Part shown: positions 1,479 to 58,956 of the stretch, piece after piece | How positions within the stretch are numbered: the first letter of the stretch is position 1 | How the letters are laid out: each line of letters begins with the position of its first letter | Assembly (NCBI GenBank): GCA_963663225.1 | Contig: OY760142.1 | Span: 32,001 to 96,000, forward strand | Reading direction: 5' to 3' | From: Nitrospirota bacterium | Lineage (GTDB): Bacteria; Nitrospirota; UBA9217 | DNA length: 64,000 bases | Notes under the pieces: model-generated | The model's input: only the letters and a program-made list of their open reading frames with translations | What the model was told of the DNA's origin: nothing | The model's database searches: none | Position numbers and translations under genes: made by a program

Positions 1479-1696
1479 AAACACCTCTCCTTTCGTTAAA
1501 CAACGCTTGAAATCCATGCGAATATACTATTATTTATGATAGCACAATTCCAGAAAAGCAGCGATGAAGAGGCCGGGGAAATGATTATTTTGGCATCTTC
1601 TATTGATACCCTTATGAAAGTCGAATTTCTGCCCGGAAACGATTCATATGGGTTGCATTGACAACGTTGGATACTGCGATGAAAACTTTTCAACCT

Positions 1697-2281
1697 TTAT
1701 CCTATTAATGTCACAATAAAAGACATTACGCCTCCCGATACAAGAGGTATTAAAAGGTTATCGTTCACCGGAAGCGGCAGGAGTTCCACACCCGCAGCAA
1801 TAAACGCGCCGATCACGACCAAACCATACATTATCGGAATGCCGGTCAGCGAGAGCAGCATTCCTCCTGATATCGCGGCGGCAACAAAAGCAATGCTCCC
1901 TTCAACGCTTTTATTTCCAATTTTTGTTTTACCATACCGTTCACCTGCAGTCGTGGCTGCAACATCGCCAAAGGCAAGAAAACAAATAGCCAATGTGGCA
2001 ATATCTTCACGGTAGAAATAAAAAGTCAAACCAATTCCTAAAATGTAGGAAGCGGTGCCCGTAATCTTCCGCTTCTCGCTCAAACGGATAAAGTTTCGGA
2101 ACTTATCATGAATAAAACGATTGACCAGCGGTAGTTTAAGGCGAACTATATCCAGCGTGAGAACAATAGCAAACAATACTGCATACAACAAAAGCGCCTG
2201 ATTTCTGCCAAGAAAATAGTAAAGTGAGACAAGGGACAAGCCGCCTAAAAGGTGATATAACTTTCTGCCTAGCTGGTTCAC
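1697..2281 (-). CDS. SEC59/DGK1/VTE5-family CTP-dependent polyprenol/diacylglycerol kinase-like membrane protein
   Basis: RKLYH at N-terminus, FGDVAA..G..YG, KSVEGS and NDNLLIP motifs; multi-TM. Confidence 0.8.
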   Translation of the reverse strand: MNQLGRKLYHLLGGLSLVSLYYFLGRNQALLLYAVLFAIVLTLDIVRLKLPLVNRFIHDKFRNFIRLSEKRKITGTASYILGIGLTFYFYREDIATLAICFLAFGDVAATTAGERYGKTKIGNKSVEGSIAFVAAAISGGMLLSLTGIPIMYGLVVIGAFIAAGVELLPLPVNDNLLIPLVSGGVMSFIVTLIG

Positions 2282-2438
2282 CGAAATCCTCGCTTGTAAT
2301 AAAAAATATTTTGTAAAGATTTTTCACGCAACAGTATTCCATCTTTTAGTCTATTGTATTTTAGAAAGATCATATGAGCAATCGTTTTTTATAACAGTTA
2401 ATTAATACGCGATCACACCTATCTTTTGCGAATGGTGA

Positions 2439-2494
2439 ATTATATTAAATGTATGTTACGGTATTATGAAAAGATTATTACAATCGGGTTACTA
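2439..2494 (-). promoter_or_regulatory. Pho-box-type promoter of the lipid kinase gene
   Basis: Minus-strand heptamers TAGTAAC, TTGTAAT, TTTTCAT, CCGTAAC at 11-bp period (2488, 2477, 2466, 2455), then 10 bp, then TATAAT (2444-2439). Confidence 0.75.
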
Positions 2495-2563
2495 CTAAAA
2501 AATTAATACTATCATAGCTAAACATGATTTTTACGCCACACCTCTCGGCAGAATACTAAAATT

Positions 2564-48687: not shown

Positions 48688-49992
48688 TTATTTTCCACTC
48701 CCCTGAACCCCATACACGCCCTGAAGATCTTTCCCCATGGAGTACAACAGCCCCGCCTCTGCCCGCTCCGCGTCATACCGCGCCCGCCACCAGTTCGTCT
48801 GGGCCGTGGACATGAGCGTGACCGCATCCAATACTTCAATGGCTGTTCCGACTCCCTCCTGGTACCGCAGCCGCTGCAGCCGGAGGTTCTCCTCTGCCTG
48901 TGCCACCGATGTCTTCATGACCTCGATCCGCTGCTCCGAACTCCGCAGATCCTGATGCGCGTTCTTTACATCCAGCCGGACCGCGTCAATGATCTTCTCT
49001 CTCGTGATCCGGAGCGAATGGAGTTCCGCTTTGCCCGCGGCCACCCTGGCACGGGTCCCTCCGCCGGACGACAGGTTGATGCTGATCCCGGCAAGCAAAG
49101 ACCAGTTGTCCTGGTGCACGACGTATTGGTTCTCCTGGTACTGGTATCCTCCCTGCAGGAAGAGGTTCGGCAGATATTCCGACCGGATGGACTTGATGCT
49201 TTCCTCCTGGCCTGAAATCCCGGCGTCTATTACCCCGATTTCCGGACTCTCCGCCTCTGCCGTTGCCCAGGCCTGTTCGAGCGTTATGGCCGGTATCGGG
49301 CTTTTGGCGACCTCCTCCGGCTGTACCGGGTCATTTAACGGCCGGAGCAGCTGGCTGTTCACCCGGGACGCCCGGAAGGACCGGAGGTTCTCTGCTAAAA
49401 GCAGCCGCTGGCGGGAATCCGCCAGCTTCACATCCGCTTCCAGCACTTCGTTCCGGGTGACCACGCCCGCGCTATACCGCGCGTCGGCGTCTTTTTTGTG
49501 GCCTTCGTACCGCTGGACGTCTTCCCCGGCCACCTGGAGCAGCTTGTCCGCTTCCAAAAGGTCATAATATGCAATGATAAAATCCAGGGCTGACCGGTTT
49601 GCGGCCCGCCGGGTCTCGATCTCTTTTGCTTTGAGTGCGTATTTTGCCGCGTCTATGGAAGAATAGGTCTTGCCGAAATCGTACAGTATCTGGGTGGCGC
49701 TCAGACCGTAGGCGTAATACCGGTCATTGGATGTGGGCATGGTACCGAAGGGGGTTTTGGCCGCGGGCTGGTTTGCGAGCCACGTCTGGTTTGCGTAGAC
49801 GTCAATCCTGGGAAACAGGCCGGAGCGCGCCGCCCATACGCTGCTCTGGGCCGACTCCTCGCGGGTCCGAGCTATCCGGATGTCCCGCCCCGTCTCTCTC
49901 ACAATCCGAAGACCCTCTCCCAAATTCAATGCCTCCGCTCCCAAGGGAAACAGAAAAACACAGAACATAAAAAGAAAAAGCAGGTGTCTCAT
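48688..49992 (-). CDS. TolC-family outer membrane efflux protein
   Basis: Signal peptide from ATG 49992 (ATGA overlap with tetR stop); two OEP repeats (RY.AG / RYQEG). Confidence 0.9.
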   Translation of the reverse strand: MRHLLFLFMFCVFLFPLGAEALNLGEGLRIVRETGRDIRIARTREESAQSSVWAARSGLFPRIDVYANQTWLANQPAAKTPFGTMPTSNDRYYAYGLSATQILYDFGKTYSSIDAAKYALKAKEIETRRAANRSALDFIIAYYDLLEADKLLQVAGEDVQRYEGHKKDADARYSAGVVTRNEVLEADVKLADSRQRLLLAENLRSFRASRVNSQLLRPLNDPVQPEEVAKSPIPAITLEQAWATAEAESPEIGVIDAGISGQEESIKSIRSEYLPNLFLQGGYQYQENQYVVHQDNWSLLAGISINLSSGGGTRARVAAGKAELHSLRITREKIIDAVRLDVKNAHQDLRSSEQRIEVMKTSVAQAEENLRLQRLRYQEGVGTAIEVLDAVTLMSTAQTNWWRARYDAERAEAGLLYSMGKDLQGVYGVQGSGK

Positions 49993-50615
49993 GCTTTTGC
50001 ACCGCTTTTTCCGGCAAGAATGCATTTTTCGAAATTTTTCCAAAGCTTCATTCCCTCTCTTCTTAGAGAAAATGAAAAACCACTCAACGACCACCTGAAT
50101 GCCAGCCCCTGCACCATTGCGATAAACATCAAAGCAACCGTCTGAGGAACAAGATCGGCCCGTATGTCTTTTTGTTGTTGTCCTTCTTTCAAGATTGAGG
50201 CGAGCCGTGCTGAAAAAGCGTACATTGTCTGGATCACCTTTTTTCTTAATTCCTTATTTACGTGAAGTTCTTCGGAAAACAAAAAGCGCGGAAGTCCCCG
50301 GTTGTTTTCCATAAGATCAAGTTGAAGAGAAAAAAATCGTCTCAAAATTTTGATGGGAGAGGAAGCGGCCTGGGAAGCGGCCTCAACATTTTCCCGGATT
50401 CTGCCCCGAACGTATTCAAAACAGGCGACATAAATCTCGTCCTTGCTCCTTACATGACGGTACAGGTTTGCCTCGGACATGCCGACTTCCCTGGCTATTG
50501 CCGCCGTCGTCAGGCTGCTTATGCCCTGCGCGCCGATGATTTTCAGGACTGCCTGCACGATTTGCTCCCGACGAACATCTCCGCGTATTTTTTTTGATTT
50601 TGAAGAAATCTGCAC
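49989..50615 (-). CDS. TetR/AcrR family transcriptional regulator
   Basis: RREQIV..IAREVGMSEANLYRH..SKDEI HTH. Confidence 0.92.
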   Translation of the reverse strand: MQISSKSKKIRGDVRREQIVQAVLKIIGAQGISSLTTAAIAREVGMSEANLYRHVRSKDEIYVACFEYVRGRIRENVEAASQAASSPIKILRRFFSLQLDLMENNRGLPRFLFSEELHVNKELRKKVIQTMYAFSARLASILKEGQQQKDIRADLVPQTVALMFIAMVQGLAFRWSLSGFSFSLRREGMKLWKNFEKCILAGKSGAKA

Positions 50616-50981: not shown

Positions 50982-51533
50982 ATGTTCCTGCGTTCTTTCA
51001 GCAAAAACAAATACTCAATGGTAGTTATTTTTTTCAGCTTTTTTTTGATACTGCCGTATGTCGGCAATGAGCAGTCACTTGCAAACCCTTCGCTCCAGGA
51101 GGCACGGGTAACGAATGTCAATGACGGAGATACCGTAACGCTCTCAATAAACGGACGGATTCACCGCACGCGCCTTATCGGAATTGACGCCCCTGAGATG
51201 GGTCAGAAGCCCTGGGGCGAAAGGTCGAAAGAACACCTTATCGGCATTATGAAGCAAAACGGCTGGATGGTTTACGTCGAAACCGATATCGTAAAAACCG
51301 ACAAGTATAACCGGCTCCTCGCCTATCTCTGGACAAAGGAAAACGAACTTATCAACGAGCGCATGCTGCGGGATGGTTATGCGGTACTGTTCACCATACA
51401 ACCGAACAGCAAACATGTGCAGCGTTTTAAAAAAGTACAGCGCATTGCCCGCCAGGAAAAAAAAGGCATCTGGGGACCCGACGGCCTCAGGGAAAAACCA
51501 TTGGATTATAAAAAACGACATCCACGAGAATAA
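50982..51533 (+). CDS. exported thermonuclease (SNase family)
   Basis: DGDT, RLIGIDAPE, DKYNRLLAY, GYA, GIW; N-terminal hydrophobic segment. Confidence 0.93.
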   Translation: MFLRSFSKNKYSMVVIFFSFFLILPYVGNEQSLANPSLQEARVTNVNDGDTVTLSINGRIHRTRLIGIDAPEMGQKPWGERSKEHLIGIMKQNGWMVYVETDIVKTDKYNRLLAYLWTKENELINERMLRDGYAVLFTIQPNSKHVQRFKKVQRIARQEKKGIWGPDGLREKPLDYKKRHPRE

Positions 51534-51615: not shown

Positions 51616-52338
51616 TTAACCCTTTTTCAAAATATTCCCTTTTATACCGATAATCGTTTCATCATACGGGATGCTTTTCCCTGAGTTTTTTACTGCTTCC
51701 TTCACGATATGAGTCAGTCCGGCACAGCACGGCACCTCCATCCTGACCACGGAAACACTCCGGACAGGGTTTTCAGAAAAAATCTGGGTTAGTTTATCCA
51801 AATAATAGCCCGCGTCATCGAGCTTCGGGCAGGCAATAATCAGCTTTTTATTCCTTAAAAATGAATTGTGAAAACCGGCTATTGAAAAAGCCGTGCAGTC
51901 CGCAGCAATCAGGATGTCCGTATTGTTAAAATACGGGGCATGAACGGGCACCAGCTTCAACTGCACCGGCCAATTGGTAAGCTCCGATCCCTGTGCATCC
52001 GCTGCCGGAGCGGAAGTAGTTGCGCGCTCTTTAAATTCAACAACCATGGAGCCGGGGCAACCGCACGGTTTGTCCGAAACCTCTGTTTTCTTTCGTTGCA
52101 GCGTCTGGACATGGCTTTTCGTCGCCTGTTCATCGAAGCCTGCTGCCTCGCGCTGGGTTATCGTTAATGCCCCTGTAGGACAGGTTCCGATGCACGCACC
52201 AAGGCCGTCACAGTAAATGTCCTTAACAAGTTTTGCTTTCCCATCGATAATCTGAAGCGCTGATTCTGCGCAGCTCGTTACACACTGTCCGCAACCGTTG
52301 CATTTGCTTTCATCAATCTCAATAATATTTCTTTTCAT
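51616..52338 (-). CDS. 4Fe-4S dicluster protein (FrdX-like, typically hcp-associated)
   Basis: CNGCGQC...C, CDGLGACIGTCP, GCPG, NWPVQL, AADC, CPKLD, MEVPCC. Confidence 0.85.
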   Translation of the reverse strand: MKRNIIEIDESKCNGCGQCVTSCAESALQIIDGKAKLVKDIYCDGLGACIGTCPTGALTITQREAAGFDEQATKSHVQTLQRKKTEVSDKPCGCPGSMVVEFKERATTSAPAADAQGSELTNWPVQLKLVPVHAPYFNNTDILIAADCTAFSIAGFHNSFLRNKKLIIACPKLDDAGYYLDKLTQIFSENPVRSVSVVRMEVPCCAGLTHIVKEAVKNSGKSIPYDETIIGIKGNILKKG

Positions 52339-52411: not shown

Positions 52412-52544
52412 ATCGATGCTTATGCTCAAAAAACATGCCGGCAGCTCTTTCTGCGCCACAAACAGTTGAACTTTTATCCTACCGTCCCACGTGTTTTTAT
52501 ATTATACTGAAACTAAACCACATGGCACAGGAGGAACCCCAAGA

Positions 52545-52814
52545 ATGAGCGAAGCTCTATTGAACATCGGATGGGCAATAATTTTCTCATTTATAGGAGG
52601 GATTGTCGGTATTATTCTGGTCCTGATTGCGACCACGTTGCTTCCCCGGCTCATCGATAAACTTACTCCAAAGATCGATGAAAACAAGGAAATTGCACGC
52701 GGCAATCAGGCGGTTGCTGAATATTTCGGCAGAATCACCTCGGCGGGAATCATCGGTATCAGCATCGTGATCGCAGCGGCGGTCCTCGGCGGGATCATCG
52801 CCGGCTTGCACTGA
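52545..52814 (+). CDS. DUF350 (YjfL-like) small membrane protein
   Basis: DKLTP.ID...EI..GN.AVA..IIGISIVIAAA motif; GGAGG RBS before ATG 52545. Confidence 0.8.
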   Translation: MSEALLNIGWAIIFSFIGGIVGIILVLIATTLLPRLIDKLTPKIDENKEIARGNQAVAEYFGRITSAGIIGISIVIAAAVLGGIIAGLH

Positions 52815-52894: not shown

Positions 52895-55519
52895 ATGAAA
52901 AAAATCTTTATCTTCACGATATGCGCTATTTGTTTTCTAGCGTCAGGTTTCACACTTCATGCACGCGGTGGGGGTGGTTGCCTGATGCAGGGAACTCCCG
53001 TTCTCACACCATCGGGAAATGTTCCGGTGGAACAGTTGAAACCCGGCGACGTTGTGTTTGGAGTTAACAGAGGAACCCTGACCCGCGCTGTCGTCCGGTC
53101 TTTGAGCATGGTGCAGCCTGATCATTATATCCAAATTATCGTAAATGGGAAAATCGGCCTTGCGGTCACCCAGGAACATCCTATAGAAGTGTCCCTTGGC
53201 GTGTTCAGAATGGCTTCCTTGCTGAAATCCGGCAATAAGGTCAATATCATCAGCCAAAACAGGTTTATGACAGGAACCATAACCTCCATTTCCACCATAC
53301 CGGCCCGCCTGCCTGCATATAACCTGCTGGTGTCACCCGCAGGAACGTTTGTTGCAAACGGAATTGTTGTACACAATAAAGGGTGTTTTCTTCCCGAGAC
53401 CCTCATCAGAATGGCGGACGGCACCAGGATGCCCATATCTCAAATTAAGCAAGATGACCGGGTGCTCGCATTCAAGACTGACGGTACGATCGTCGCATCA
53501 CGCGTCAATACTATACTGTCCCATGATGTGGATGAATACCGTGTGGTGACCGCCGGCAATATGCTTTTGCACGTGACCAGCGAACACCCGTTTTATGTCG
53601 GGGCGGGAACATTTAAAACCCTTGATTCACTGCATATCAACGATACAGTCGTTATTTTCGACGGTGTGGGTCTCAGCAGCCAGAAAATCACGGATATCCG
53701 TACAGTACACAAAAAAATCCGTGTTTATAATCTCCAGACAGACAGTCCTCATACGTTCTTTGCAAATGGCGTCGCAGTGCATAATAAGGGAGGCGGATGT
53801 TTTCCTGCGGGCACGATGATACTGACGCCGCGCGGTGCTATCAGGATAGAAAGTCTTTTATCCGGGGATATAGTAACGGCAATTGACAGAGCAGGAAATC
53901 CTGTCGCAGTACCCGTCAAAGCAGTATACGTGACGTCCTCACCCCTGCTGATCGTCAGGACACCGCATGGTGTTTTAAGAACAACTCCGGAACATCCTCT
54001 CGCACTCGCATCAGGAGATTTCCGTCCGGCAGGGAATTTATTGCCCGGCAATGAAGTATTGATCTGGCAGAATTCAGAACAACGACGTGCAAGGGTACAG
54101 GCTGTCCAGCAGATAAGTACCTATGAGTCTGTTTACAATCTGACTGTGGATTTACCCCACACCTTTGTGGCCGACGATTTTATCGTGCATAATAAAGGCG
54201 GCGGAGGCTACCGCGGCGGCAGCTATCACTCGTCCGGCAGGTCATCCGGCACTTCCTCTGATGAATCAGTGATTGTGTTTGTTATCGCATTTTTTGCCGT
54301 TAGCGCATCCATAATAATAATTGCCGCTTTGCTCGTTAAAAGTTCGCAAAAAGGAAACCTGGACCATCTTTACAGCATTTCTCAAATTCGGGGCAAAAGC
54401 GATAAGACATTGAAACTCCTTGCATTTCTCTCAAAACAGGATTCGTTGATGGCCCCGAATGCGCTGAAGAAGACTACCGAATCCGTCTTTCTAAAACTGC
54501 AGTCATGCTGGCAGTCACGTGAATACGTTCCCATGAAACCGCTTCTGATGCCGGACCTCTACCAGAACCATCTTGACCAGATACAGAGCATGCTGCGCAA
54601 CCATGAAATCAATATCATCGACCACCTAAAGATCGAACGAATTGATCTCGTCAATGTTCGATACACGCTGAAGCAGAATGACCGGGAATTTACCGCTCTC
54701 GTCTCGGCAACGGCACAGGATTATTATCTTGACGACAGAACACGGAGCAAGCTGCGGGGAGATGAGGCGCCTGCTCAATTTCAGGAGTTCTGGACATTCC
54801 AGTATCTGGATGGAACATGGCTGTTGCGCGAAATCGAACAATCGGCTGAATCGGATATATTAAAAGAAGATAATTTTGTAGAACAATTAACAGACAAGGC
54901 AATAGAACAGATTTACGGGCAAACAGTCCCACGGTCCGGATTGTCCGGCCCCTGGCTCGAAAGAAATGTGGAAGCGAAGGAAACGCGCGTAGAAAGAATG
55001 TTGAACTTTCTGGTACAAACGGACAAACTCTGGAACCGCAGTGCAATGCTGCTTACTGCAAGAAATGTTTTTATCAAACTGATTGCTGCCTGGGAATCCG
55101 GGGACACGGCGCGAATCCCTTCTGACGATCTTTTCGCCGATATGGCATCGGATATGGAAAAACAGATTGCGAGGAACCGGACTGCTGAAACCGCTCTCGA
55201 ATTCCGGAATTTGTGCATCCGGAAAACAGAGTTGCTTCTTATCAACAATTTCTCCGATAACAGCAAGGATGAATTTGTGGTACGCATTCGCGCACACGCC
55301 CAAAAAATTCTTAAACAGCATGGAGTATTGGTACACCAGGATGAAGAGGTGGCCCCTTTCGAACAGTATCTGACATTCGGCAGGTTGAATAATCAATGGA
55401 AATTAAAAGAGGTTGTGAATGAAGGAACAAAAGACTCGCTGATTCAGCAGGAAAATATTGACCAGGAGTCTTCTCCACAGCAGATACAGTGGTACTATCA
55501 GCATAAGCGCGCTCTGTAG
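52895..55519 (+). CDS. exported protein: signal peptide + 3 tandem Hint domains + Gly-rich linker + TM + 2 Tim44-like domains
   Basis: Signal peptide ending LHA; three C...TxEHP...YNL...F...VHN units; TM aa 459-481; two units with Q/A..W, F.E.W/L.F and W.L.E motifs of Tim44-like fold. Confidence 0.88.
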   Translation: MKKIFIFTICAICFLASGFTLHARGGGGCLMQGTPVLTPSGNVPVEQLKPGDVVFGVNRGTLTRAVVRSLSMVQPDHYIQIIVNGKIGLAVTQEHPIEVSLGVFRMASLLKSGNKVNIISQNRFMTGTITSISTIPARLPAYNLLVSPAGTFVANGIVVHNKGCFLPETLIRMADGTRMPISQIKQDDRVLAFKTDGTIVASRVNTILSHDVDEYRVVTAGNMLLHVTSEHPFYVGAGTFKTLDSLHINDTVVIFDGVGLSSQKITDIRTVHKKIRVYNLQTDSPHTFFANGVAVHNKGGGCFPAGTMILTPRGAIRIESLLSGDIVTAIDRAGNPVAVPVKAVYVTSSPLLIVRTPHGVLRTTPEHPLALASGDFRPAGNLLPGNEVLIWQNSEQRRARVQAVQQISTYESVYNLTVDLPHTFVADDFIVHNKGGGGYRGGSYHSSGRSSGTSSDESVIVFVIAFFAVSASIIIIAALLVKSSQKGNLDHLYSISQIRGKSDKTLKLLAFLSKQDSLMAPNALKKTTESVFLKLQSCWQSREYVPMKPLLMPDLYQNHLDQIQSMLRNHEINIIDHLKIERIDLVNVRYTLKQNDREFTALVSATAQDYYLDDRTRSKLRGDEAPAQFQEFWTFQYLDGTWLLREIEQSAESDILKEDNFVEQLTDKAIEQIYGQTVPRSGLSGPWLERNVEAKETRVERMLNFLVQTDKLWNRSAMLLTARNVFIKLIAAWESGDTARIPSDDLFADMASDMEKQIARNRTAETALEFRNLCIRKTELLLINNFSDNSKDEFVVRIRAHAQKILKQHGVLVHQDEEVAPFEQYLTFGRLNNQWKLKEVVNEGTKDSLIQQENIDQESSPQQIQWYYQHKRAL
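52979..53377 (+). other. Hint / bacterial intein-like domain 1 (aa 29-161)
   Basis: G|CLMQGTPV, VTQEHP, AYNLLV..TFVANGIVVHN|K. Confidence 0.9.
53384..53785 (+). other. Hint / bacterial intein-like domain 2 (aa 164-297)
   Basis: G|CFLPETLI, VTSEHP, VYNLQT..HTFFANGVAVHN|K. Confidence 0.92.
53798..54193 (+). other. Hint / bacterial intein-like domain 3 (aa 302-433)
   Basis: G|CFPAGTMI, TTPEHP, VYNLTV..HTFVADDFIVHN|K. Confidence 0.92.
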
Positions 55520-55986: not shown

Positions 55987-57417
55987 CTATCCTTTCACGC
56001 AGGCGATGGGTTTGACCCGCGCGACCCTTCTGGCAAGATTTGCGTTATGAGCGGCCTCAACTACTTCACCTACATCCTTGTATGACTCCGGCGCTTCTTC
56101 GGCAATGCCGGAGTATGAATGACCACGAATAAGTATCCCCCGCTCTTCCAGCGACGCAACAATCTCCTTCCCATGCCATCTTTTTTTTGCCTGCGTCCGG
56201 GACATTGCCCTTCCGGCGCCATGGCATGCGGAACCGAACGCGGTCTCCATTCCTTCATCGGTTCCGACAAGAATATACGACGATGTTCCCATGGTTCCGC
56301 CGATCAGAACCGGCTGCCCGACATGGCGGTATTCCTGCGGCAGATCAACTCGACAGGCCCCGAACGCCCGGGTTGCGCCCTTGCGGTGAACGTACAGTCT
56401 CTTCTTCTTTCCCCTGATCATATGCGTTTCAATCTTGCACGTATTGTGGCTGACGTCGTACAGCATCGTGATTCTGCTCTCGGGATAAACTTCAGAAAAT
56501 ATTTCCCGAACCAGATGGGCAATGATCTGACGGTTCGCCAATGCGCAGTTGATTCCGGCGCTCATTGCGCCAAAATATTTTTTCCCTTCAGGCGATATGA
56601 TCGGGGCGCAGGCCAACTCCCGGTCCTGTACAGTAATATTGTATTTGCGCAGAGTGACGGCAAGGTTTTTCAAATAGTCGGTGCCGATCTGGTGCCCGAG
56701 ACCGCGTGATCCGCTGTGGATGGAAATGAGAACGTCGTTTTTTTGAAGGCCCATGGCCTGCGCTGTTTCCTCCTGATAAATATCAGCCACCACCTGCACT
56801 TCGAGATAATGGTTTCCACTGCCCAGTGTCCCCATCTCGCGATGTTGCCGTTTTTTTGCCGTATCCGAAACAGCGTCCGGTTCCGCTCCTTCGACTCTGC
56901 CATGGTCTTCAATATATGCAAGATCTTCCGGGACTCCATAGCCTTTCCGTACTGCCCATGCAGCTCCTGCGGCAAGCATTTCGTCAATGTGCGCCGAAGA
57001 GAGTCTGATCAGCCCCTCAGACCCTACTCCCGCCGGCACTCGGGCATAAAGTTGGTCAATAAGCGATTGGAGTCTGGGCAGGACTTCCTCCCGCGTCAGA
57101 CCGGTCTTCATCGTCCGGACGCCGCAGGAAATATCGAAACCCACGCCACCCATGGAGATGATCCCGCCTTCATCCGGATCAAATGCGGCAACACCTCCGA
57201 TGGGGAAACCATATCCCCAATGCGCATCAGGCATTGCAATGGAAGCGAGCTGAATGCCGGGCAGCATGGCGACGTTTATCACCTGTTCGCGCACTTTCTC
57301 ATCCATCTCCCTGATTAATTTTTCGCTTGCGAAGATCCTGCCGGGGACCCGCATGGCGCCCTGCTGCGGTATCTCCCAGGTATAATCAGTAAGTTGAAGG
57401 AAGGATTTCGGATCCAT
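55987..57417 (-). CDS. rtcB: RNA ligase RtcB (archaeal-type)
   Basis: MPDAH.GYGFPIG, GFDISCG, GTLGSGNHY, HSGSRG, HRKGAT, HGAGR, EEAP..YK; likely ATG 57417. Confidence 0.96.
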   Translation of the reverse strand: MDPKSFLQLTDYTWEIPQQGAMRVPGRIFASEKLIREMDEKVREQVINVAMLPGIQLASIAMPDAHWGYGFPIGGVAAFDPDEGGIISMGGVGFDISCGVRTMKTGLTREEVLPRLQSLIDQLYARVPAGVGSEGLIRLSSAHIDEMLAAGAAWAVRKGYGVPEDLAYIEDHGRVEGAEPDAVSDTAKKRQHREMGTLGSGNHYLEVQVVADIYQEETAQAMGLQKNDVLISIHSGSRGLGHQIGTDYLKNLAVTLRKYNITVQDRELACAPIISPEGKKYFGAMSAGINCALANRQIIAHLVREIFSEVYPESRITMLYDVSHNTCKIETHMIRGKKKRLYVHRKGATRAFGACRVDLPQEYRHVGQPVLIGGTMGTSSYILVGTDEGMETAFGSACHGAGRAMSRTQAKKRWHGKEIVASLEERGILIRGHSYSGIAEEAPESYKDVGEVVEAAHNANLARRVARVKPIACVKG

Positions 57418-57481
57418 AAAAACTCCGGGACTCAAATACGCCAATTGCGGTTCGAGGAGGATGTATCTGGATTGCTTTTTA

Positions 57482-57898
57482 TCATACATCGACTACGCAT
57501 TGCGCAGTATATATTCCGTTTTTCTCAACCACACTCAATTGATGGTATGTGGCGCCTTTTACTTCCACCTTTGGTTCGTGGCGCTCCGTATCGAGACGTT
57601 CTCCCCACGCCGTTCCCGTCAGCGCCATATTCCGAATCGTTACTTTAAACGCAGAAAACACTATGTGTTCGAGGTCTGATACCGACAGCAGTGCGTTAAG
57701 CCATTCGACGAGAAGAAGCTCCGTGTCAGGCGCCGCAACAGTGACGGTCAAGGTCTCTTTCGGCTGCACCGCTTCGGTTTTTACCATGATGGAATACAGG
57801 GCCGCCGCGGCATTTTCAAAAGCCTCCTCCATGCTGCTGCCGGATCCCCGGATACCGATATCTGATTCGTGCTCAAACGTCTCGTATAACGCTCCCAA
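57482..57898 (-). CDS. archease
   Basis: EH.SDIG, EAFENAA, VKGATYH, C-terminal VDV; adjacent to rtcB. Confidence 0.93.
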   Translation of the reverse strand: MGALYETFEHESDIGIRGSGSSMEEAFENAAAALYSIMVKTEAVQPKETLTVTVAAPDTELLLVEWLNALLSVSDLEHIVFSAFKVTIRNMALTGTAWGERLDTERHEPKVEVKGATYHQLSVVEKNGIYTAQCVVDV

Positions 57899-57948: not shown

Positions 57949-58956
57949 TCACCAAAGCCCCGCTATATTTGCACCACAATAGCCACAGGTTCCTGCCTTT
58001 ACCATATTTTGAAGAACACGAAAACCTATCCGCTGAACCAGCGTTCGTTTACAATTCCAGCAGATTGTATCTTCTCCCTCGCCGGGAATATTTCCTTCAT
58101 ACACGTACCGGAGACCCGTTTCAAAACCAATCTGCCTGGCGCGGGCAAGTGTCTCCAGCGGCGTTTTCGGCTGGTCAAACAGTCTGTACATCGGATGAAA
58201 GCGTGATACATGCCACGGAATATTTTCACTTACCGATTTTATGAAACCGGCAATTTTTCTGAGTTCTTCGTCTGAATCATTATATCCGGGGATAATCAGA
58301 GTAGTAATTTCAACCCAGATGCCGATTTCCTTGTAAAGCCGTATCGAATCAAGCACCGGAGCAAGCCGCGCGCCGCATATCTTCGTATAAAAATCATCAC
58401 TGAAAGCCTTAAGATCGATATTTGCAGCATGGAGATACGGCTGTATCGTCTTCAGCGCTTCAGAAGTAATATATCCGTTTGTTACAAACACATTTTTCAG
58501 GCCGGATTCGCTTGCCAAACGGGCCGTGTCATAGGCCAATTCAAAATATATCGTCGGTTCGGTATAGGTATAGGAAATGCTGTCGCAACCGCGGTCACGG
58601 GCCTCCTTGACGATGGCACTTGGCGTTGCAGATTCACCTGCCAGGAGTCCGCTGTGATCCTGCGGAAGTTGAGAAATATCGGAATTTTGACAGTGCTTGC
58701 AACGGAAATTGCACCCGGGTGTTGCAATGGAGTAGGACAGGCTGCCTGGTCGAACATGAAAGAGGGGTTTTTTTTCAATGGGATCAACGTGACGGGCGAT
58801 CACCTTGTCATAGACCAGGCTGTACAGGACGCCATCGCGGTTTTCGCGAACAGCGCAAACGCCGCGTTTTCCGGGTGAAATAAGACAATGATGGTTGCAG
58901 AGGCCGCATTGTACTCTCTTGTTCTCTTTCGGCTGCTGGAACATTGCCTGTTTCAT
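57949..58956 (-). CDS. amrS: AmmeMemoRadiSam system radical SAM enzyme
   Basis: C..C...C N-terminal cluster, DPIEKKPLFH, GCNFRCKHCQN, YTYTEP, Y.GN. Confidence 0.9.
   Translation of the reverse strand: MKQAMFQQPKENKRVQCGLCNHHCLISPGKRGVCAVRENRDGVLYSLVYDKVIARHVDPIEKKPLFHVRPGSLSYSIATPGCNFRCKHCQNSDISQLPQDHSGLLAGESATPSAIVKEARDRGCDSISYTYTEPTIYFELAYDTARLASESGLKNVFVTNGYITSEALKTIQPYLHAANIDLKAFSDDFYTKICGARLAPVLDSIRLYKEIGIWVEITTLIIPGYNDSDEELRKIAGFIKSVSENIPWHVSRFHPMYRLFDQPKTPLETLARARQIGFETGLRYVYEGNIPGEGEDTICWNCKRTLVQRIGFRVLQNMVKAGTCGYCGANIAGLW

Follow-up and report, generated by a model that had tools for sequence, protein, structure and literature searches.

Tandem Hint domains with an invariant lysine at the +1 position in a predicted exported Tim44-like protein of Nitrospirota and other bacteria

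What can a Hint domain do when the residue that follows it is always lysine? The question is raised by a gene on the forward strand (+) of a Nitrospirota bacterium, at positions 52895..55519 of a 64,000-nucleotide stretch of DNA (assembly GCA_963663225.1, contig OY760142.1, positions 32,001 to 96,000; hereafter the window, to which coordinates refer unless stated otherwise). The gene, present in single copy in the 3.26-Mb, one-contig genome, is one open reading frame (ORF) of 874 amino acids (aa) that encodes a signal peptide, an array of three Hint domains, a Gly/Ser tail, a transmembrane helix and two Tim44-like domains, and is referred to here as the Hint-Tim44 gene. The original prediction for this locus held that each Hint is preceded by Gly (-1) and followed by Lys (+1), never by Cys, Ser or Thr, and that the array extends over 52964-54210 with the exteins RGGGG, KG, KGGG and KGGGGY; translation of the ORF bears this out to the residue, the interval running from the codon of Arg24 into that of Tyr439.

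Read from its N-terminus, the array begins with the first N-extein RGGGG (residues 24-28, 52964..52978), which is followed by Hint1 (C29 to H160-N161, 52979..53377), a linker KG (residues 162-163, 53378..53383), Hint2 (C164 to H296-N297, 53384..53785), a linker KGGG (residues 298-301, 53786..53797) and Hint3 (C302 to H432-N433, 53798..54193), after which KGGGGY (residues 434-439) opens the tail; all lie on the + strand. The first extein and the KG linker are read directly from the sequence, Hint1 and Hint3 are each recognized by Pfam and in an AlphaFold2 model, and Hint2 is recognized by Pfam, by phmmer and by comparison of domain types. The best Pfam match of the array is PT-HINT (PF07591; 74.7 bits against a cut-off of 27.7, in three stretches), the further Pfam matches being Hint_2, Hint, Intein_splicing and Vint, and the NCBIfam models TIGR01443 and TIGR01445, which represent the C- and N-terminal splicing regions of inteins, also match. 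The AlphaFold2 model, built on an alignment of 34 three-Hint relatives, has a mean predicted local distance difference test (pLDDT) score of 80.5, mostly 70-92 over Hint1-3, and consists of three all-beta domains, disordered segments at residues 298-301 and 434-458 (pLDDT below 50 in each), a helix at residues 458-481 and two alpha+beta domains. Pairwise identity among Hint1, Hint2 and Hint3 is 32-34%.

The same junctions recur throughout a large family. When residues 1-450 were used as the query and matches at E <= 0.001 were scored among the 7,999 best candidates, at least 997 protein clusters (90% identity) matched the Hint part, and the best 120 of these clusters have the same architecture. 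A regular-expression parse of the best 120 found Lys followed by one to five Gly in 337 of 339 inter-Hint linkers and His-Asn at 458 of 459 domain ends. As this parse presupposed part of the pattern, a hidden Markov model (HMM) was built that covers only the domain body, beginning at Cys1 and ending with the terminal Asn, and was run on 267 proteins (the 120 from the Hint-part search and 147 cluster representatives from a search with the Tim44 part), the flanking residues at -1, +1 and +2 being outside the HMM and hence unmodelled. It located 605 Hints in 187 proteins. By the HMM boundaries, Lys at +1 and Gly at +2 are each found at 602 of 602 family Hints, Cys, Ser and Thr being absent from +1 at all 602 domains; the -1 position is Gly at 586 of 588 and Ser at the other 2. 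The catalytic residues are equally fixed, with Cys1 at 588 of 588 and the terminal His-Asn at 602 of 602, and the TxxH motif of block B keeps its Thr in 456 and its His in 458 of 459 domains. Conservation of the +1 Lys in homologues, the lack of which was to count against the original prediction, is therefore complete in this set, and that of the -1 Gly is nearly so.

The exteins themselves follow a simple pattern. RGGGG stands before Hint1 in 113 of 120 relatives, and the first extein, which is preceded by no Hint, opens with Arg in 168 of 171 cases and with Lys in 1 of 171. The linkers (n = 414) are KGGG (178), KG (166), KGG (37), KGGGGG (26), KGGGG (4), KGGS (1) and two longer ones, spanning KG to KG7 (2-8 residues). 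Because the Lys at +1 and the Arg of the first extein are not interchanged at either site, it seems that an amine, or another property specific to Lys, is needed at +1 and not mere positive charge; this is the strongest argument that the sequences offer for a Lys-specific role.

A control indicates how far this fixation reaches. PT-HINT was matched in 32 of 151 Planctomycetota genomes, and 28 of 30 fetched loci were examined, the two omitted being partial matches without a C-terminal end; two of the 28 belong to the Hint-Tim44 family and two have no His-Asn end, leaving 24 to be counted. These 24 PT-HINT domains carry at +1 Asn (5), Lys (4), Thr (3), Gly (3), Ala (2) and one each of Ile, Glu, Ser, Cys, Arg, Val and Asp, and their -1 residues are variable as well. 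Because the flanks vary in the control, fixation of G/C and HN/KG (the stroke marks the boundary between extein and Hint) is a trait of the Hint-Tim44 family and not a general trait of bacterial intein-like (BIL) domains. Outside the family Lys at +1 is sporadic. A Lys+1 subclade of PT-HINT was considered and rejected: the family HMM gives 25-75 bits to the four +1 Lys domains from outside the family and interleaves them with domains carrying Asn, Val, Ile or Gly. Three Planctomycetota loci (L070, L072 and L083) encode a single PT-HINT domain in unrelated proteins, in which HN/K is followed by Val, Gln or Ser, not by Gly.

The remainder of the protein indicates where the array is likely to reside. 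The signal peptide (residues 1-23, MKKIFIFTICAICFLASGFTLHA, 52895..52963) ends in LHA before Arg24 at a putative type-I signal-peptidase site recognized by inspection, and the signal peptides of relatives end in SWA, LHA or AWG, again before Arg. Behind Hint3, KGGGGY and the rest of an exported tail rich in Gly, Ser, Arg, Tyr and His (residues 434-457, 54194..54265) are predicted to be disordered and lead into the transmembrane helix (residues 458-481, 54266..54337), which is a helix in the model and is followed by KSSQK. About 390 residues lie beyond this helix and comprise Tim44-like domain 1 (approximately residues 495-650, 54377..54844), identified by Pfam and modelled as helix plus sheet, and Tim44-like domain 2 (approximately residues 690-851, 54962..55447), identified in the model and with its best Pfam stretch at residues 715-840; Pfam Tim44 (PF04280), whose bacterial members carry the annotation 'predicted lipid-binding transport protein (Tim44 family)', matches in two stretches with 62.8 bits (cut-off 29.6). 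Because of the signal peptide and the Lys residues after the helix (positive-inside rule), the Hints would lie outside and the Tim44-like domains inside. Pfam detected no homing-endonuclease domain, no toxin domain and no ubiquitin-like domain in the 874-aa protein.

Relatives that carry no Hints suggest what the array interrupts. When 1.84 billion cluster representatives were searched exhaustively with HMMER for relatives of residues 434-874, 1,098 matched at E <= 0.001 and 130 of these at E <= 1e-30. Five Hint-less relatives (P0305, P0362, P0306, P0321 and P0318) have a signal peptide, a mature start in which Arg is followed by Gly or Ala and then by a Gly run (A/R-[G or A]-G-G), a Gly/Ser/Tyr-rich tail, a transmembrane helix and Tim44, the last confirmed by Pfam in two of the five; in other relatives without Hints, a simple anchor or a different kind of exported tail forms the N-terminus. 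The genome's only other Tim44-like gene (1495..2514 of locus L045 on the - strand, in the C1:2313546-2313986 region) encodes 339 aa in which a signal peptide ending in YA is followed by RAGGGRSSGSSGS, a membrane stretch rich in Gly, Leu and Met, and a single Tim44 domain, and by its sequence this paralogue is a Hint-less version of the same design. The Hint-Tim44 protein shares with P0305, P0362 and the paralogue the signal peptide, the Arg-Gly-Gly start after Ala, the Gly/Ser tail, the membrane helix and Tim44, and is set apart by its Hints and, from the paralogue, by having two Tim44 domains rather than one. Because the Hint-less relatives and the paralogue have this layout, the Hints can be placed within a Gly-rich exported tail, right after its R-G-G-G-G start. 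The tail is encoded uninterrupted in the Hint-less relatives; it is of low complexity, and identity to even the nearest of the Hint-less forms is no more than about 35%. What the original prediction called micro-exteins thus have exactly the sequences it gave, and are better regarded as pieces of this one tail. Removal of the Hints and re-joining would therefore recreate a known protein form, and either the re-joined RGGGG+KG+KGGG+KGGGGY... or the C-cleaved KGGGGY... would resemble the Hint-less proteins. Short Hint-less forms from a word search (120 listed) were set aside and do not speak for split or Hint-less genes, as most result from truncated gene calls or lie at contig ends; P0144, for one, begins inside the last Hint.

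Structural comparison places the array among Hint systems of known chemistry. Foldseek with the model returned at least 103 PDB matches at E <= 0.001, the best 50 of which are all Hint, BIL, intein or hedgehog domains. The closest solved chain to Hint2 is BIL2 of the polyubiquitin-like BUBL1 locus of Tetrahymena thermophila (6Y75, 6TMM; phmmer E 3e-10), which is also the top relative by Foldseek (E 5e-11, template-modelling (TM) score 0.80 over the target). The BIL of Clostridium thermocellum (2LWY), which has Ala at +1, matches Hint2 with a phmmer E of 4e-8 and a Foldseek TM score of 0.85 over the target, while inteins and Hedgehog are more distant sequence matches of Hint2, in an order that Foldseek repeats. 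The TxxH block reads T-S-E-H-P-F-Y here and T-F-D-H-P-F-Y in 2LWY, and the F and G blocks end in V-H-N.

By its sequence the Hint-Tim44 array is a real, strongly conserved feature and a type-A-BIL-like Hint variant. With type-A BILs (PT-HINT, 2LWY) it has in common the Hint fold, Cys1, TxxH, the C-terminal His-Asn, a +1 residue other than Cys, Ser or Thr and a place in the exported part of the protein. It is unlike them in that both flanks are fixed across the family, in that one to six Hints stand in tandem 2-8 residues apart, and in having one conserved position after RGGGG within a conserved two-gene module, with neither a toxin domain nor a variable pre-toxin region. Type-A BILs are described as occurring where secreted proteins are hypervariable, the proteins themselves being poorly conserved and often equipped with toxins (PMC7765530). 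Their chemistry is described as involving a thioester, Asn cyclisation and attack by the free amino group of the C-terminal fragment (PMC4031507), which agrees with the premise of the original prediction that some type-A BILs cleave and can ligate by aminolysis without Cys, Ser or Thr at +1. For the C. thermocellum BIL a peptide bond through the alpha-amine has been proposed.

BIL2 offers a second precedent, as it is reported to splice so that an isopeptide bond joins the C-terminus at its upstream Gly to K(epsilon-NH2) without ATP, and conjugation of the domain upstream of it to several substrates is also claimed (PMC8616854). The N-terminal flank of BIL2 before Cys1 is given as R-G-G (PMC9200820) and is thus like the R-G-G-G-G found here. 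BIL2, however, is eukaryotic and cytoplasmic, is flanked by folded ubiquitin-like domains where the present Hints have Gly-rich linkers only, and has its target Lys, as described, in the downstream domain or in other proteins. Class-1 mini-inteins (Npu and Ssp DnaB, Mtu RecA) are similar in fold and catalytic blocks (Foldseek TM score 0.85-0.87 over the target); in contrast to them, the Hints here have no +1 Cys, Ser or Thr, appear to lie in a low-complexity exported tail and not at a conserved site of a cytoplasmic enzyme, and are tandem, paralogous and under selection. A single mutation is reported to have turned other BILs into ordinary inteins (PMC7664689).

The number of Hints varies more than their junctions. 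Among members with complete N-termini (n = 162), those with one, two, three, four, five and six Hints number 18, 15, 39, 87, 2 and 1, and among the best 150 Tim44-part matches the one- to six-Hint members all keep HN/KG. Six members that seemed to be without Tim44 (P0022, P0025, P0036, P0049, P0068 and P0096) proved to be truncated or frameshifted copies of the same architecture. Within one protein the median identity of Hint copies is 33%, and the copies fall into position-specific types: a first-position type (here Hint1), a CFLP type, usually after KG (Hint2), and a CFPAG type, usually after KGGG (Hint3); of 162 CFL-type Hints, 150 follow a KG linker. When each Hint is paired with its closest counterpart in another protein, the two are of one type for 158 of 166 CFLP and 150 of 166 CFPAG Hints, so that by sequence comparison the copies are old paralogues whose position-specific types are kept across phyla. 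The ratio of nonsynonymous to synonymous substitution rates (dN/dS) against the orthologues in the two closest relatives, L001 (92% identical) and L002 (77%), is 0.09 and 0.08 for Hint1, 0.13 and 0.12 for Hint2, 0.19 and 0.21 for Hint3, and 0.18 and 0.13 for the Tim44 part; purifying selection thus acts on each of the three Hints with roughly the strength seen for Tim44.

Built on the observed anatomy, conservation, intact catalytic residues, selection and closest relatives, the reading we favour has, in our estimation, slightly less than an even chance of being right. The Hints would be type-A-BIL-like modules that are kept by the host and excise themselves, the amine of the +1 Lys capturing the Gly-thioester so that the tail is re-joined. 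This would occur after export and removal of the signal peptide, in a Tim44-like inner-membrane protein that would work with a DUF350 membrane protein encoded directly upstream. The Gly-Cys bond would be converted to a Gly-thioester by an N-S acyl shift involving Cys1 and the TxxH block; the terminal Asn of His-Asn would cyclise and so cut the C-terminal bond of the Hint; and the +1 Lys amine, mobile through the invariant +2 Gly, would capture the thioester. The Gly-rich pieces would be re-joined without a +1 Cys, Ser or Thr, yielding a tail like that of the Hint-less proteins and free Hints in the periplasm. Lys capture of the Gly-thioester was one of the options in the original prediction and finds a reported precedent in the closest solved relative, BIL2 (PMC8616854). 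The acting amine may be either the alpha-amine, giving a peptide bond as proposed for the C. thermocellum BIL, or the epsilon-amine, giving an isopeptide bond as reported for BIL2.

A more specific form of the idea, which we consider rather doubtful, has the epsilon-amine of the +1 Lys replace the +1 Cys, Ser or Thr, so that the branched intermediate would form directly as an amide and Asn cyclisation would then free the Hint. Some weight is given to this route because attack by the alpha-amine would work with any small residue, while the +1 Lys is invariant, and because BIL2 is a precedent. Epsilon chemistry would then have left its mark on the sequence in the strict +1 Lys, as against the strict Arg that opens the first extein, and in the invariance of the +2 Gly. 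The protein would then carry an ATP-independent, extracytoplasmic cassette for Gly-Lys isopeptide bonds, a bacterial counterpart of the 'ubiquitin-dispensing' BIL of Tetrahymena BUBL. Lysines and other amines in the envelope might, in addition, become cross-linked through these thioesters to the tail or to Hints that have been released.

Several considerations weigh against re-joining through Lys. Processing, ligation beyond cleavage and Lys as the source of the amine are all steps that we infer from sequence, and the predicted export topology comes from inspection. Ligation would be the weaker step of the proposal, because cleavage products are reported to dominate in type-A BILs (PMC4031507, PMC7664689). 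Aminolysis by an alpha-amine would need no Lys at all, the BIL of M. magnetotacticum being described with Tyr at +1 (PMC4031507), and it is just as conceivable that the Lys helps to catalyse Asn cyclisation, is recognized by a partner or matters as the new N-terminal residue. The tandem copies, Hint1 included, may also be chemically non-equivalent, because most first-position Hints lack the Asp and His of block F. In the columns of D120 and H123 of Hint2, first-position Hints have Ser (78 of 149) or other residues and Gly (129 of 149), respectively, and the CFLP type has Asp (144 of 166) and then Asn or His, the link of these columns to the block-F Asp of inteins being by alignment only. Finally, if the product is simply the Hint-less form, the benefit of carrying one to six Hints would be left unexplained. 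Possible benefits are a role for the freed Hints, conditional processing, and stored acyl energy for the ATP-free periplasm; the second of these is suggested because Cys1 is the sole Cys in 441 of 585 Hints and the location is predicted to be extracytoplasmic.

The dominance of cleavage in characterized type-A BILs also speaks for the main rival account, that the Hints only cleave. The thioester would be hydrolysed and the Asn-Lys bond cut, yielding free periplasmic Hints, Lys- and Gly-containing peptide waste and a membrane protein with the N-terminus K-G-G-G-G, and the benefit would come from the freed Hints, from exposing that N-terminus at a set time, or from the two together. We regard this as unlikely, yet a serious contender. 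Hint-less relatives begin, after the signal peptide, with a basic residue and a Gly run much as the C-cleaved protein would, and purifying selection over whole Hints together with position-specific types fits a role after release. Cleavage alone leaves unexplained, however, why RGGGG is so regular before Hint1 if everything upstream of the last Hint is discarded, and why Lys at +1 is absolute and never gives way to Arg, the N-terminal residue of the Hint-less forms.

Transfer in the manner of Hedgehog, in which an amine or hydroxyl of the envelope (peptidoglycan, a lipid head group, a polyamine or a protein) would attack the Gly-thioester and the segment upstream of it (a Hint with a K-G(n) end, or a small peptide) would become attached in the ATP-free periplasm, is improbable. 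The Hedgehog cut site is G/CF, and Hint2 and Hint3 both begin with G/CF in what is likewise a secreted context with predicted thioester chemistry. The Hedgehog Hint module of Pfam (PF01079) matches with an E of 2.8e-16, and 1AT0 and 6TYY are among the hedgehog structures matched. Hog domains, however, have a sterol- or adduct-recognition region and do not need a terminal His-Asn, whereas here His-Asn is invariant, there is no such region, and what follows a Hint is only K-G(n), 2-8 residues long between Hints, or the Gly/Ser tail. The multiple conjugation substrates claimed for BIL2 (PMC8616854) would support transfer, as would the report that DUF350/YjfL genes share operons with polyamine-metabolism genes (PMC11237479). 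Against this, no conserved gene for a candidate acceptor was found nearby, the neighbours being only DUF350 and, in 6 of 43 loci, LemA.

Less probable still is that the Hints are mini-inteins, selfish or in decay, whose copies spread through a low-complexity tail that tolerates them without host function. The copy number of 0 to 6, the spliced appearance of the Hint-less relatives and the patchiness of the gene would fit such elements; of 201 genomes from the phylum 12 have a match, a strong one in 7 cases, and among 4 further genomes of the genus there is 1 with a match. However, a homing-endonuclease domain and a +1 nucleophile are both absent, whole Hints have dN/dS values of 0.08-0.21, the position-specific paralogous types are old and span phyla, and the flanks are fixed. 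Three congeners without Hints also yielded no double-Tim44 part, one of them having a weak match to the single-Tim44 paralogue only; because the Hint-linked double-Tim44 gene is missing along with the Hints, it is the whole module that comes and goes and not the Hints alone, and the Hint-Tim44 gene is accessory. Release of small cyclic peptides, in which two-sided cuts would free KG- and KGGG-thioesters to become cyclo(Lys-Gly) and the like, recalls twin-intein peptide cyclisation in its Hint-short peptide-Hint layout and gains from the regularity of KG before CFL-type Hints and from the ease with which a dipeptide thioester with a free amine cyclises, but it is very improbable as the conserved purpose, since single-Hint members (18 of 162) keep HN/KG with no internal peptide, the linker drifts from KG to KG7 and the last Hint keeps HN/KG with no thioester downstream; cyclo(KG) and cyclo(KGGG), which the original prediction had offered as products, could at most be by-products.

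Bacterial intein-like domains have been known since 2003, and to our knowledge their purpose is poorly understood outside the release of pre-toxins. A full-text literature search, which left subscription journals and supplementary files outside its reach, found no account of Hint or intein-like domains joined to Tim44, and the papers listed on bacterial intein-like and tandem BIL domains show nothing of this architecture. The family is widespread, with loci in Nitrospirota, the Planctomycetes-Verrucomicrobia-Chlamydiae (PVC) phyla, syntrophic deltaproteobacteria, Myxococcales and Acidobacteria. With flanks as fixed as the catalytic residues, selection acting on the Hints and exteins composed almost entirely of Gly and one Lys, it forms a clean, small system in which to ask whether a lysine amine can be the designated nucleophile of a Hint, whether amide or isopeptide bonds can be made in the ATP-free periplasm from stored thioester energy, and what BIL domains do for their hosts. 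If the proposed Lys chemistry is true, it would also provide a compact, cysteine-free ligation tag for protein engineering.

The second gene of the module lies directly upstream of the Hint-Tim44 gene and encodes a small two-helix membrane protein of the DUF350/YjfL type (52491..52814, +; Met19 at 52545 is the likelier start). Its match to PF03994 is marginal (27.0 bits against a cut-off of 26) and covers only profile positions 11-65 of 133. Of 43 genome loci, 33 have a DUF350 homologue directly upstream, and 7 of the other 10 have less than 200 nucleotides of DNA on that side; DUF350 is the sole constant neighbour in these loci, which come from Nitrospiraceae, Lentisphaerae/Victivallales, Sedimentisphaerales, Planctomycetes, Verrucomicrobia, Kiritimatiellaeota, Syntrophaceae/Smithella, Myxococcales and Thermoanaerobaculales. 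Other large clusters of neighbours were dropped as antisense shadow ORFs inside the two genes. The operons in which DUF350/YjfL genes accompany polyamine-metabolism genes are described as of the PspA envelope-stress type (PMC11237479); this literature is taken as context and not as functional evidence for the Hint-Tim44 module. In the 6 loci with LemA, the gene lies just upstream of DUF350; it is absent from the window, and one member (L008 5030..5593, +) is confirmed by Pfam (E 1.4e-56). A scan for promoters and terminators at the locus gave counts not above those of shuffled sequence.

Further genes surround the module in the window. At 51616..52338 (-) a 240-aa protein combines an N-terminal 2x[4Fe-4S] ferredoxin domain with a C-terminal part that is rich in Cys and matches nothing in Pfam, and this ferredoxin-type gene adjoins the module in the same genus only (L001 and L002). 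Farther upstream lie a gene for an exported staphylococcal-nuclease-like protein (50982..51533, +; SNase E 1.7e-21, with a signal-peptide-like start) and, at 48688..50615 (-), a gene for an outer-membrane efflux protein (OEP) that overlaps or adjoins one for a TetR-family regulator, suggesting an efflux operon. On the other side, an RtcB RNA ligase (500 aa, Pfam E 5e-168) and then an archease (138 aa) are encoded at 55987..57898 (-), next to a radical-SAM protein (57949..58956, -), and the RtcB-archease pair is kept in the two closest relatives, L001 and L002.

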